12,795 nucleotides of DNA from a virus. Shown here one piece after another: positions 6,573 through 12,394 of the stretch (within the stretch, counting starts at the first letter, position 1; every line of letters begins with the position of its first letter). The translations under genes and the position numbers were made by a program. The stretch lies in UHGV virus genome UHGV-0061597; one strand, 5' to 3'. The notes beneath the pieces were generated by a model, which did not search any database, was not told where the DNA came from, and saw nothing but the letters and a program-made list of their open reading frames with translations.

Positions 6573-6590
6573 CAGATAACCAACGCAACG

Positions 6591-6614
6591 ACCCAGCTTC
6601 GGCTGGGTTTTTTT
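6591..6614 (+). terminator. Rho-independent terminator after ant
   Basis: ACCCAGC-TTCG-GCTGGGT stem-loop followed by a 7-nt T run, 19 bp after the ant stop. Confidence 0.85.
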
Positions 6615-6750: not shown

Positions 6751-8808
6751 ATGACAGACATTACAGCCAATGTTGTAGTGAGTATGCCTTCGCAACTCTT
6801 CACTATGGCGCGTTCTTTTAAAGCCGTAGCCAATGGCAAAATTTATATCGGTAAAATTGACACTGACCCGGTAAATCCTGAAAACCAGATTCAGGTTTAT
6901 GTGGAGAACGAAGACGGCTCTCACGTTCCTGTTCCGCAACCAATCATCATTAATGCTGCTGGATATCCGGTATATAACGGACAGATTGCCAAATTCGTTA
7001 CTGTACAGGGCCATTCTATGGCTGTTTATGATGCGTACGGTGTGCAGCAGTTCTATTTTCCGAATGTGCTGAAGTATGACCCGGATCAGTTAAGACAAGA
7101 GTTAGCAACAGAGGGTAATGAAATACTTGTTGACGACTCCCGTATTGCAGTTAAAAGTGTTCATGTAAATTCAAAACTTAGAACACAGCACAATAAAAAC
7201 GCAGAAATAATCACGCCAAATGATTTTATATCAAATTATGACATGATATCTGCAGCTATTAACTCTGGAGAGAGTGCCGCAGTATTTAATTCCAGGTATG
7301 CATTCACAATAACAGTTGGGGAATATGGTAATTTTAAATCTATTAGTGATGCTCTAAACTCGGCTGTTGCACTGCGTCCACTATGGAAAAATGGCATTGA
7401 CTTTTGCATAATTAAAATTCTTTCCGGTTTTGTGCTCAATGAGCAAATAGAAATTTCAGCAGGATGTGACTTATCATGGATTAAAATAATATCAGAAGAC
7501 TCAGTGGTTTTCTCTGATACCAGTTTGTTTACTAAAACTGTTAGGACGTATTACGAATACAAATATTTATTTTACATTTGCGATGCAGCAAAAAGTCCTG
7601 TATTTGCTATTCAGATTGAAGAAAATAGAGATGATAGCGATGTTTGTGCATTTATTGTAACTCAAAAAGCTGAACTTAATTTCTATCCGTATTCAGGTGC
7701 TCGAAAGTTCTACGTTGGAATTCATGGTAGTTTTGGTGCAAAAATTAGTGCATATCATACCGGATGTGCTCCTGATGAGGAAAGTGTTGCTGCATATATG
7801 CCAGAAGGATATTACGTATGTGATTTTTCTTATAGCAGATACTCTTCCCTGCAACTGGTAAATAATGTCAAGGCATCAATGCCTGTAAGCAAGTTTGAAC
7901 GGTGCACAGAGAGTACGGTTGCGTCAGTTAATTGTATTTATAATGTTAAAGCAGATTTTCAGGGGTCAAGTGCAAGCTATTGTTATATAGGATGGAATGT
8001 AAGAGATGGTTCAAATGTTAATATACGCGACCATAAAACTATACATTGCTCATATCGTGGATTAACCTGCATTCATACAGCATATGTTGATGCAAGACGA
8101 CATGACGTTGAAGAAAGTGATGCAGAAACAAGTGGTAAAGTCCTTGAACCAAATATTGAAAAAGGTTTTTATGGATGTGCACTTGGTGTGCGTATTGATG
8201 GTGCGGGTTGCGTTGATGTTGCTGGTAATGATATGCGCAATTGTGGAACAGCCGTTAATGCAGACACTGGTGCTGTTATTTCAGGAAAGGCTGTAGATAT
8301 CTCAGGGGCTGAGCTGGGATTTGATTGCCATGCAGGAGCATCTGTTAATTTTCCAAGGCTATGGGGTACAGATATAAAAAAATTAATGCACCTCCAAGAT
8401 GGTGTAAGGTTTAACTCTAATATTTGTCATGTATTTGGTGCAAATCCCACAAAAGATATTAGATGGATTGATGTAGAGAGATCTGAAGCTTCTTTTATGA
8501 ATGCAACGCTGGATGCAGATTCAGGATTTATTGCCGACTGTGGTAGTAGGATAACCATTGAAGGAAGTAAAGTTAAAAACCAAACAATAAGAAGTTTTTT
8601 TGGATCACATGTGGCTATAAATAATACTGTTGCTGACAGAACTTATTCAGATATAGCCGATGTTCCGCAGTTGACTATTAGTGGAGGATCTTTTATTTCT
8701 GCTACAGGATATTCTAATTCTGACTCCAGCCCTCTTAGGTTGAGCACAACACGAAATACACTTGGAGTTGGAGGAGCCATATTTTCAACCAATGGGGAAG
8801 TTTCATGA
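6751..8808 (+). CDS. Tailspike protein: P22-like N-terminal head-binding domain fused to a divergent receptor-binding domain
   Basis: The first ~113 aa ([34 protein letters not shown] ... NVLKYDPDQ) closely match the P22 gp9 N-terminal domain as I recall it. The remaining ~570 aa show no resemblance to P22 gp9 and are Cys-rich and AT-rich. GGAG lies upstream of the ATG. 685 aa. Confidence 0.92.
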
Positions 8809-9101
8809 TTAAGAGCATTGATGTCACTCCATTTCTTCACTCGCTTTGCGCTTTTGTGGCTCAGGTACTGGTTGGTATTTTTACCGGAAACTGGGCTTAC
8901 GGTGCGATAGCCGGTTGTACGTTCTTCATTGCGCGTGAACACACCCAGGCAGAATATCGCTGGATAGAAAAGTTTGGGAAAGGGAAACGTATCAACATGC
9001 CGTGGTGGGGAGGTTTTGATCCACGCGTGTGGGATGTGGGAAGTCTGTTGGATTTTGCTGTTCCTGTTGTTTTTTGTTTTTGTGTTTATTTCTCTATTTG
9101 A
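8805..9101 (+). CDS. Small hydrophobic (membrane) protein of unknown function, coupled to the tailspike gene
   Basis: ATG overlaps the tailspike stop (ATGA at 8805-8808). 98 aa with two hydrophobic segments ([27 protein letters not shown] and [18 protein letters not shown]). No family recognised. Confidence 0.55.
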
Positions 9102-9294
9102 CTGCTACCGCGCCATTAAATGGTGCGGTATTCAACCTGCTCTTCACTGTTTGTTTCTTCAGAGTCATGTAAAAGGTGAGCTTTATTCTCGGCATGAAAA
9201 ACAGGGAATTGACGATGTTAAAGTAACAAAAAACCATAAATGGTTTATTATGCGTAATGCTTTACTGTTCAGGAGGTTGTTATGCATATAAACG

Positions 9295-9708
9295 GTGGAA
9301 AACATGTCAGCTCAACTAACCAGTGAAACTTTAAATCAGTGGCTTAGCATGAGTTCTCTGGCGGCGGTGATAGCAGGAGTTCCTCCTGAGGTTGCTTTGG
9401 GTGCTTTGGCTGGAGCGGTAATTTTTGTTACCTCTGCAGTAGAGTACCCCATCCGTCGCCGGGTGCTCCTGTCGATGCTCAGCTTTCTTTGCGGCCTTCT
9501 CTTTTACAAACCAGCAGCATCAATTCTTATCGGCATAGCCAGCCTGATCCCTACCATCACGCAGGACTCTTTTGAAAAAGGGATTGTTTTCTCTGCAGGC
9601 GCATTCGTGTCAGCAATTGTCGCTGTGCGTATTGGTATATGGCTCTATCACCGTTCCGATAATCCACGCGAGTTAATTCCGGGGAGAAAAGACGATGGTA
9701 ACGCATGA
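9295..9708 (+). CDS. Putative holin or lysis-associated membrane protein (multi-TM)
   Basis: 137 aa with at least three hydrophobic helices. First gene of a tightly overlapping set of four ending in endolysin and Rz. The start is uncertain: GTG at 9295 or ATG at 9304. Confidence 0.55.
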   Translation: MENMSAQLTSETLNQWLSMSSLAAVIAGVPPEVALGALAGAVIFVTSAVEYPIRRRVLLSMLSFLCGLLFYKPAASILIGIASLIPTITQDSFEKGIVFSAGAFVSAIVAVRIGIWLYHRSDNPRELIPGRKDDGNA

Positions 9709-11101: not shown

Positions 11102-11256
11102 CATGGCATTTTTCATGGTACTGATTTCCGGTGACGGTATATAAAACGGTACGATAAAAATTGAGATTTGGAAAAATGTTATCACTCAATTGGTTATGGT
11201 TATCGTAAATAATTGAGTGGGAATGATTTTAATCCCTGCACTATGAATGAACAAAA

Positions 11257-11320: not shown

Positions 11321-11860
11321 TTAATTAAACCAGCTGTCCGATTTGTTCTCTTCTGCTTTGCCCACGCTTTTCATCAGATCGCGACCGCCTTCAGTCATAT
11401 TTCTGTTGGCGTCAGCTTCAGATTGCACCACATCGGTTTGCGCAGCTTTGTGCTTCAGTTCCTGATCGATAAATTCGTTTTCTCGCTTAACGCGGGCTTC
11501 TTCTTTTGCCAGCGCCAGTTTTTGTTTCTGAATCTCTAAGCTGCGTAGCTCATCTTCATAACTTTGATCGCGTTTTTTGTCCGCAGAGGCTTCGGCGTCC
11601 AGTTTATCCTGACGAGCTTTCTTATTTGCCGCTGCCGTTGCCGCTCTTTTGTTAGCGGCGGCCTGGGCATTTGCGCGACGTTGCTTCTCTTGCTGGATTT
11701 TCCTGTTGCGCTCCGCGACCCATTCGTCATGCTGCCTTTGCTCTTCATTTTTACCTTGCTGTTCAGCTTCTGCTACAGCAGAGAGTTGATCCTGCAATGA
11801 TGAGGCGATAGCCGGATAGCTTAAGGAGGCCAAGATGGCGCAAAGAAAAACTTTCTTCAT
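11321..11860 (-). CDS. Secreted/periplasmic Lys/Ala/Glu-rich coiled-coil protein
   Basis: 179 aa with an N-terminal signal peptide (MKKVFLCAILASLSYPAIASS) and a highly charged low-complexity body. AGGAGGAG lies upstream on the minus strand, 15 bp after the lipoprotein gene stop, so the two are probably one operon. Confidence 0.7.
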   Translation of the reverse strand: MKKVFLCAILASLSYPAIASSLQDQLSAVAEAEQQGKNEEQRQHDEWVAERNRKIQQEKQRRANAQAAANKRAATAAANKKARQDKLDAEASADKKRDQSYEDELRSLEIQKQKLALAKEEARVKRENEFIDQELKHKAAQTDVVQSEADANRNMTEGGRDLMKSVGKAEENKSDSWFN

Positions 11861-11875
11861 GACTCCTCCTGATTA

Positions 11876-12394
11876 TTAGCTCTTTTCAGGACATTTAGTA
11901 TTTGGCTGAATACGCGTTTCGTTATACGTTGTGGTAATAACAACGGCTAAACCTGTCGTAAACTGGCACTCTTTACCCACCTGGGTAGAGGTATACACTT
12001 TGGTGCCTTCCTTATATGTTAAAGAAACACCTTCCACTAAGGTTTTATCATTCACCATAGAACCCACTGCCGCGCCTACAGCTCCGCCGCCAACTGCCCC
12101 TGCCGTCGTTCCGGAATTGCTGCCAGAACCGACGTTGTGGCCGATAACACCGCCAGCGACTGCGCCAATAAGCGCGCCGAAGGCTTGTGCGTTCCGTTTA
12201 TTTTGGGAGTTGTCTACGGCAACTTTTGCGGGAAGAATGGAAATAATATTAACGGTTTTAGTTTCTTGTTTGGTATTCAGTTGATCGGTTTGATAAACAT
12301 CGGCGGCATGATCGTCAGCATTTGACTGGCATCCTGCCAGAGTGAATGACGCTAACATTGCCACAGGCAGAAGACATTTTTTAAATTTCATCAC
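11876..12394 (-). CDS. Lipoprotein with glycine-zipper domain (YcfJ/SlyB-like family)
   Basis: 172 aa with signal peptide and lipobox (LAGC), and a glycine-zipper motif (FGALIGAVAGGVIGHNVG) resembling E. coli YcfJ as I recall it. AAGGAA lies upstream. Followed to the right by a roughly 200-bp extremely AT-rich region. Confidence 0.75.
   Translation of the reverse strand: MMKFKKCLLPVAMLASFTLAGCQSNADDHAADVYQTDQLNTKQETKTVNIISILPAKVAVDNSQNKRNAQAFGALIGAVAGGVIGHNVGSGSNSGTTAGAVGGGAVGAAVGSMVNDKTLVEGVSLTYKEGTKVYTSTQVGKECQFTTGLAVVITTTYNETRIQPNTKCPEKS

Follow-up and report, generated by a model that had tools for sequence, protein, structure and literature searches.

The viral DNA UHGV-0061597, 12,795 nucleotides (nt) long ("the window" in what follows: the whole stretch that was analyzed, which is one entire short-read metagenome contig, ERZ1314608 NODE_2890), carries a single long open reading frame (ORF), at 6751-8808 on the + strand, for a protein of 685 amino acids (aa). 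That this ORF encodes the modular tailspike of a P22-like temperate phage is close to certain. The receptor of the spike is probably a group-2 capsule of E. coli, K52, along with a related, K116-like one, and not an O-antigen: the distribution of the receptor-binding part of the spike among E. coli lysogens points in this direction. A further step, that the spike is also an enzyme and depolymerizes the capsule to which it would bind, is put forward more tentatively, as a possibility only.

Mosaic tailspikes are textbook biology and a chimera is ordinary; it is the predicted target that gives this one its value. Of the K types, K52 has the highest estimated invasive potential, and in European bloodstream infections it ranks among the five leading capsule types; a published list of the K antigens of E. 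coli for which phage depolymerases are known does not include it (PMC12488582). A protein that recognizes or strips K52 and K116-type capsules would be useful for capsule typing, as an anti-virulence enzyme, and in the choice or engineering of therapeutic phages. If true, the enzymatic reading would make this the first depolymerase known for a phosphoglycan capsule of E. coli, specifically K52, and would provide the first view of a beta-helix spike handling a phosphodiester-linked capsule. The sequence is already public, annotated merely as a tail spike, tail fibre or head-binding-domain protein: the exact 685-aa protein is present in an isolate genome at NCBI, and complete genomes carry the ORF at 99.4-99.7% nt identity.

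Lysogens, O-antigens and capsules

The receptor module (the part of the spike that lies beyond the P22-type head-binding domain) was found in 16 of 5,426 complete E. coli genomes. Seven of these have it in a P22-like prophage, and for the other nine the best match is to an epsilon15-like form; two copies are present in three of the genomes. Humans, chickens, a pig, seawater and meat were the sources of the carriers. Co-occurrence with other loci was counted by means of chimeric megablast queries that join the module to a 700-nt probe: genomes carrying the module rank first, and an extra place signifies that the probe is present.

The first-pass annotation, made from the sequence of the window alone, had predicted a host range or O-antigen specificity different from those of phages P22, Sf6 and HK620. 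That the specificity differs is very likely; that it is for an O-antigen is unlikely. In single-sequence and profile searches of the PDB the C-terminal domain aligns, beyond the neck, to no characterized tailspike. In three carriers the O-antigen clusters were located by conserved gene order, and these clusters are unrelated: CB7286 has wzx and wzy genes of the O17/O44/O73/O77/O106 family, 118UI is O15 and FORC_082 is O5. The wzy gene of O15 is present in six of the 16 carriers and the O17-group wzy in two (which are one strain deposited twice), so that no O-type is common to the carriers, and an O-antigen as their common factor was rejected. An O-antigen endoglycosidase like the tailspikes of P22, Sf6 and HK620, with a new O-serotype specificity, is a very improbable identity for this protein: it would have to serve at least three unrelated O-clusters; the most frequent O-type covers far fewer of the carriers than do the capsule loci described next; and the known O15:K52 clone accounts for the enrichment of O15.

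K52 is classically partnered with O15 and O17/O77, and the capsule locus was examined for that reason. The locus of 118UI has the order kpsFEDUCS, an IS3 element, four K-specific genes, kpsT, two K-specific genes and kpsM. Its K-specific products are 525, 123, 248, 829, 1248 and 330 aa long, and in length and annotation the first five are K52_7, _8, _9, _10 and _12 of the kTYPr K52 reference cluster (PMC13171606, supplement); K52 is also among the loci with rearranged kpsM and kpsT (PMC13171606). A probe taken from the gene for the 525-aa product is present in 40 of the 5,426 genomes, 10 of them carriers of the module. A second K52 probe, from the gene for the TagF-like polymerase, picks out exactly the same 40 genomes and 10 carriers.

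FORC_082 has no K52 locus. Its short region 2 consists of a GalT-related gene, a gene for a TagF-like protein of 1249 aa and a gene for a 262-aa acyltransferase, whose products are 63%, 47% and 71% identical to their K52 counterparts. Because these values match the published identities between K52 and K116 in the kTYPr catalogue (63%, 48% and 68%; PMC13171606), the FORC_082 locus is called K116-like. A probe from its type of polymerase gene is present in nine genomes, five of which carry the module. Together the K52 and K116-like loci, both of them built round homologous TagF-like polymerases, are found in 49 of the 5,426 genomes: in 15 of the 16 carriers as against 34 of the 5,410 non-carriers (Fisher p ~3e-31, or ~3e-29 without the duplicate genome, in a test that ignores kinship among carrier genomes that are not phylogenetically independent). 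The lysogens follow K type, then, and not O type, in what is an association only. Both prophage backbones are seen with both K types, which argues for several independent acquisitions; the module is 98.3-99.7% identical throughout. What the module recognizes would be whatever the K52 and K116-like capsules share, presumably the backbone made by their homologous GalT and TagF-like enzymes.

Could the link to K52 and K116 be a lineage or ecological effect, the true receptor being something else (the lipopolysaccharide core, the enterobacterial common antigen, or the shared lipid-Kdo (3-deoxy-D-manno-octulosonic acid) anchor of group-2 capsules)? K52 is concentrated in clonal complex 69, and several of the carriers are plainly kin. 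Every one of the 16 has group-2 kps genes (the kpsD gene, present in 1,709 genomes overall), so that a generic feature of group-2 capsules is conceivable; one carrier, EC332, has the module without either K locus, and a broad host range has been reported for phage JEP4, which bears the same module. However, with a generic group-2 feature the module should be scattered among all 1,709 kps-positive genomes, whereas 15 of the 16 carriers fall within the 49. The carriers also differ in source, O-type, integration site and prophage backbone, of which there are two. An effect of lineage or ecology is, on balance, quite improbable, and the K52 and K116-like capsules are preferred as the receptor.

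Five observations nevertheless weigh against a capsule-degrading spike of this specificity: 1) The K116 assignment comes solely from matching inter-cluster identity values. 2) EC332 is an exception, with two copies of the module, each in a prophage of its own, but an unrelated group-2 region 2 (glf, a ugd-type sugar dehydrogenase gene and two GT2 genes). A capsule switch after lysogeny might account for its pattern. 3) Six K52 carriers are O15, one genome among the 16 carriers is deposited twice, and ECO_1_S and ECO_2_R resemble a pair by name. 4) A catalytic family signature was not found in Pfam, NCBIfam or PDB sequence searches. 5) JEP4 is reported to lyse 28 of 38 (74%) phylogroup A chicken isolates (PMC8425383), which is broader than restriction to K52 and K116 predicts. 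The last of these is given little weight because of a discrepancy in the report itself: the paper gives JEP4 the morphology of a myovirus, with a head of 106 nm and a tail of 103 nm, and places it in the Myoviridae (PMC8425383), dimensions that clash with the deposited JEP4 genome, which is that of a 39-kb P22-like Lederbergvirus. The published host range may not be that of a pure stock of JEP4. It is offset, in addition, by FORC_082, a chicken-meat isolate with a K116-like locus. A search of the published literature on JEP4 and on three other phages with the module (HZ41, HEMP4 and 92CQ) did not find receptor data. A separate observation concerns the genome of EC332 (NZ_AP039429.1, 4.01-4.26 Mb): its pheV island has two copies of segments that are single in FORC_082.

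Domains, fold and putative chemistry of the spike

The N-terminal 113 residues match the Pfam family Head_binding (PF09008) over its full length (positions 1-113 of 113; E=1.8e-66). This is the sole Pfam family matched by the 685-aa protein. Sequence searches of the PDB return only the head-binding domains of P22 gp9 and Sf6 gp14 and fusions of these, and the domain is indeed P22 gp9-like, as had been claimed for it. Three features, the N-terminal domain, the place of the gene in the genome and the fold, put the protein in the P22 gp9-type tailspike class. A megablast comparison of the tailspike gene with 50,697 phage records divides it sharply: about 30 P22-like phages (HK620, Sf6, CUS-3, IME10 and Sf101 among them) match only from nt 1 to nt 339-355 of the gene, at 88-95% nt identity, and the remainder is matched by four phages. 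A true breakpoint thus lies at window 7089-7105, and the chimera proposed in the first-pass annotation, with its classic point of modular exchange after the head-binding domain, stands. The added claim of complete divergence after about nt 7090 is half right: similarity of nucleotide sequence does end at 7089-7105, but the protein continues to align with Sf6 gp14 through the neck (aa 114-160), weakly reaching residue 160.

The neck aligns to Sf6 gp14 aa 114-167, with the RTQHNKN motif in aa 114-160, and profile positions 116-167 match the N-terminus of the Sf6 tailspike crystal constructs. Its motif, in the fuller form GDxLIxVKQP...RTQHDKN...DF, is kept in all 22 homologues, whatever the N-terminal anchor to which it is joined. 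Near-identity to phage 92CQ (99.3%) sets in precisely with the RTQH motif, at window 7179, and the motif looks from these alignments like a second shared recombination joint, besides the end of the head-binding domain. The motif lies at window 7180-7227 (aa 144-159); the Sf6 tailspike also has it.

The DNA changes composition close to the breakpoint: a sliding window locates the fall in GC content at window 7050-7125, and between the first 339 nt of the gene and its remainder GC drops from 44.2% to 37.2% and GC at third codon positions (GC3) from 44% to 22%. The markedly AT-rich character that had been noted beyond the domain boundary is thus genuine. It is special to the present receptor module and not general to tailspikes, because GC3 is 42%, 39% and 36% in the corresponding parts of the tailspikes of HK620, Sf6 and CUS-3. 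The cysteines are another matter. About 20 had been counted and considered unusual for a tailspike beta-helix; there are 17, all within aa 219-597, and they make up 2.97% of aa 114-685, as compared with 2.35% in HK620 and 2.55% in Sf6 (and 0.69% in CUS-3). Cysteines 219, 433, 476 and 498 are invariant across the 23 family members; at the other positions some members have V, I, A, S, T or M instead. Because most are interchangeable in this way they are read as small buried residues of the core and not as disulfide pairs. Structural disulfides are, besides, unlikely in a protein that is assembled in the cytoplasm. Richness in cysteine, as a special feature, was ruled out by the comparison with HK620 and Sf6 and by the pattern of conservation in the family.

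Beyond the neck, the C-terminal domain is predicted to be a right-handed parallel beta-helix, the ordinary tailspike fold and not a new one. The AlphaFold2 model of aa 114-685, made with the family alignment, has a mean predicted local distance difference test (pLDDT) score of 92.7 and a predicted template modelling (pTM) score of 0.87, and consists of two short helices (residues 33-39 and 49-62 of the fragment) followed by a long series of short strands. A Foldseek search with the model gave one significant match, to 8egr (E=3.8e-12), which is gp15 of the Staphylococcus epidermidis phage Andhra; every other match was above 1e-3. In a library of viral models the best named fold match was a Bacillus phage protein. 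Recognition by sequence is another thing: PDB sequence searches, with the single sequence or with a profile, found nothing beyond anchor and neck, Pfam and NCBIfam yielded no match to the receptor module, and the pectate-lyase-like and Beta_helix families of Pfam (PF12708 and PF13229) found no match in the 685-aa protein, although the fold class is the same. PF13229 was weakly scored only by distant relatives, two of which alone, P0031 and P0045, passed the cut-off. The 685-aa protein belongs to no characterized catalytic family.

It does belong, as judged by its sequence, to a small family without a characterized member, phrog_5662 ("tail fiber protein"), to which residues 2-572 of the fragment align with 1211.9 bits over profile positions 152-729. 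A homology search with aa 114-685 brought up 23 relatives at 39-100% identity. Their N-terminal anchors vary (PF09008; PF18668, the TSP1/Gp66 N-terminal domain; PF12571, of tail-collar fibres; PF03906, of T7 tail fibres; or none). Two relatives (P0013 and P0018), one with a TSP1-type anchor and the other with the P22 head-binding domain, bear an extra C-terminal SGNH/GDSL esterase after the beta-helix, a hint that some lineages deacylate the target polymer. A profile search of 1.84 billion representatives gave 2,106 matches, most of them to the columns of the N-terminal anchor; there were also distant helix relatives with weak Beta_helix matches.

Is the module an enzyme, or would it simply hold on? 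A beta-helical adhesin, binding the capsule or another glycan without enzymatic activity, would suit the missing catalytic signature noted above. Beta-helices that are not enzymes (Vag8, pertactin, and the TibA and Hap adhesins) are among the high-scoring fold matches, and the closest solved relative, Andhra gp15, is without demonstrated activity. The pattern of conservation speaks the other way: many charged residues (D240, D250, E291, D358, D419, D494, H442, R293, R318, K319, R418, R426, R449, R496 and R536) are invariant in the family, over 22 homologues down to 39% identity, which is more typical of an active site and substrate groove than of a scaffold. Arginines 426, 449 and 496, at a spacing of roughly one helix turn, are compatible with a basic groove for a polyanion. 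Moreover, the known spikes of podoviruses that have to get through a capsule are enzymes, that of CUS-3 for example. A pure adhesin is improbable, and a capsule depolymerase is more likely.

As a mechanism, one can propose the following. The gp9-type head-binding domain (aa 1-113) would plug into the tail hub, the conserved neck (aa 114 to ~182) would connect this anchor to the receptor module, and the right-handed beta-helix, of ~500 aa, would bind the surface polymer of the host. The trimeric spike would bind capsule polymer along the groove of the helix and most likely cleave it, the virion working its way down through the capsule to the outer membrane; the model for such a passage is the endosialidase tailspike of CUS-3 on K1. 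The K52 and K116-like targets would be phosphodiester-containing, teichoic-acid-like polymers, made by homologous TagF-like polymerases. K52 is said (by Hofmann, Jann and Jann, in 1985) to be a poly(galactosyl phosphate) branched with fructofuranose and carrying O-acetyl and O-propionyl groups. Both K loci encode acyltransferases, and these, together with the SGNH esterase of the two relatives, fit an O-acylated substrate. K52 is cited among the phosphodiester-bridged capsular polysaccharides (PMC5566550), and TagF-like capsule polymerases transfer hexose-phosphate or glycerol-phosphate, giving teichoic-acid-like polymers (PMC5974469). One can go further and imagine a single phage enzyme family for phosphodiester-linked, teichoic-acid-like polymers, common to the receptor proteins, binding wall teichoic acid, of Gram-positive picoviruses (Andhra, the Bacillus phage SRT01hs-like proteins) and to coliphages directed at TagF-dependent group-2 capsules, its E. 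coli members cleaving the K52/K116 backbone at or beside the glycosyl-phosphate bond. This is a speculation, and an unlikely one as it stands.

Mobility of the module and its setting in the contig

The receptor module moves as a cassette between unrelated phage backbones. Its protein is 100% identical in the P22-like phages JEP4 and HZ41. For the 130-kb phage 92CQ the identity is 99.4%, and there the module stands behind a different N-terminus in a cluster of tail-fibre genes. In the epsilon15-like HEMP4 and related prophages it is 89.7% identical in aa sequence overall, and 98.3% identical in nt sequence from window 7444. Its distribution among isolated phages is narrow, tblastn adding just two further relatives, VEc3 (47%) and an Aeromonas jumbo phage (30%). 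A small companion, the 98-aa predicted membrane protein of Table 1, goes with the module in the P22-like and epsilon15-like prophages and is absent behind it in 92CQ; its ORF has no match in Pfam, NCBIfam or PADLOC. The sequence held in common with JEP4 and CB7286 stops at 9064 and in HEMP4 and EC332 goes on.

Table 1. Features of the tailspike gene and its surroundings (window coordinates)
Feature	Position	Strand	Remarks
Low-GC block (36-40%), three leftward ORFs: 161 aa, 182 aa with PIN domain, 239 aa	3002-4810	-	between gp16-type ejection gene and mnt
Terminator-like hairpin and T-run	6590..6609	+	3' of ant, 5' of tailspike gene
Head-binding (virion attachment) domain, P22 gp9 type, aa 1-113	6751..7089	+	Pfam PF09008; GC 44%
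Neck/linker, aa 114 to ~182, motif RTQH(N/D)KN...DF, two predicted helices	7090..7296	+	junction for module exchange
Receptor-binding, putative depolymerase domain, aa 183-685, predicted right-handed parallel beta-helix, AT-rich, 17 Cys	7297..8808 (incl. stop codon)	+	
Switch from P22-like to epsilon15-like copy of shared cassette	8700..8800		mismatch bins
Predicted membrane protein, 98 aa	8805..9101	+	start overlaps tailspike stop (ATGA); phrog_1443 (unknown function)
Host genes yfgI (DUF5384) and yfgH (glycine-zipper lipoprotein)	11321-12394	-	

The tailspike gene, with a GGAG ribosome-binding site 8 nt 5' of its start, lies downstream of the genes of ejection proteins (gp20, gp16) and of the immI region (mnt, arc, ant). 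The upstream ORFs match the Pfam families Inj_translocase, Arc, Mnt, KilA-N and P22_AR_C, and the ORF at 821-2977 matches PF26808 (Phage_P22_gp16). The gene order around the tailspike is the same in JEP4 and CB7286, and HK620 has an annotated terminator, tANT, at the position equivalent to that of the hairpin in Table 1. The low-GC block has the appearance of a moron and is possibly a toxin or defence cassette, for which a PADLOC match was not found; it is seen also in P22-like prophages of sequence type 131 and other strains.

The contig as a whole is composite. Up to ~8.7 kb it follows P22-like references, and beyond ~8.8 kb its sequence is exactly that of an epsilon15-like prophage (as in HEMP4 and EC332); its right part holds a lysis cassette and then yfgI and yfgH. 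P22-like references show 0 mismatches in 8400-8799 and 5 in 8800-9064, and epsilon15-like references 3 in 8600-8799 and 0 in 8800-9700. The switch thus falls inside a near-identical cassette of ~1.6 kb that is common to both types of prophage, and may be either an assembly join or a true point of recombination, an assembly artefact being possible because some strains carry both prophages. The tailspike ORF is unaffected by the possible join. Since yfgI and yfgH are genes of the host chromosome, the right end of the contig is bacterial DNA beside the attachment site of the epsilon15-like prophage; the match to HEMP4 stops at 11228.

Comparison with known systems

The tailspikes of P22 (gp9), Sf6 (gp14) and HK620 (gp9), the O-antigen endoglycosidases of the Lederbergviruses, are the obvious standard. 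Beyond ~aa 160 they have no detectable sequence similarity to the present spike; the GC3 of the Sf6 and HK620 receptor parts (39-42%) is nearly twice the 22% found here; and, unlike theirs, the host distribution of the present module does not follow O-type.

The best structural relative of the module, the receptor-binding protein gp15 of Andhra, comes from a different setting: it is anchored by a coiled-coil stem on the collar of a picovirus of a Gram-positive host, and its ligand and activity have not been demonstrated. Andhra's class of receptor is wall teichoic acid (PMC9710869). The identity between gp15 and the module is only 12-15%, and when the family profile is compared with gp15 by hhalign, the first helix turns align marginally (E=1.9e-4, probability 48%). 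The gp12 preneck appendage of phi29 scores far below gp15 in structural comparison, and its autocleaving C-terminal chaperone is absent from the present tailspike.

The closest parallel in logic is CUS-3, a P22-like prophage on K1, whose tailspike has the same head-binding domain (92.7% nt identity over the first 342 nt) and joins it to an unrelated receptor module: in CUS-3 a 981-aa endosialidase with 0.7% Cys that acts on polysialic acid, and here a module whose inferred target is a K52/K116-like phosphoglycan. In both cases a P22-like temperate phage would direct its spike at a group-2 capsule and not at an O-antigen; CUS-3 is annotated with an experimentally shown endosialidase, whereas here the target comes from the association with lysogens. 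Another parallel is provided by phiHS3, a recently described P22-like phage for whose tailspike a Klebsiella-like K47 capsule has been inferred as receptor.

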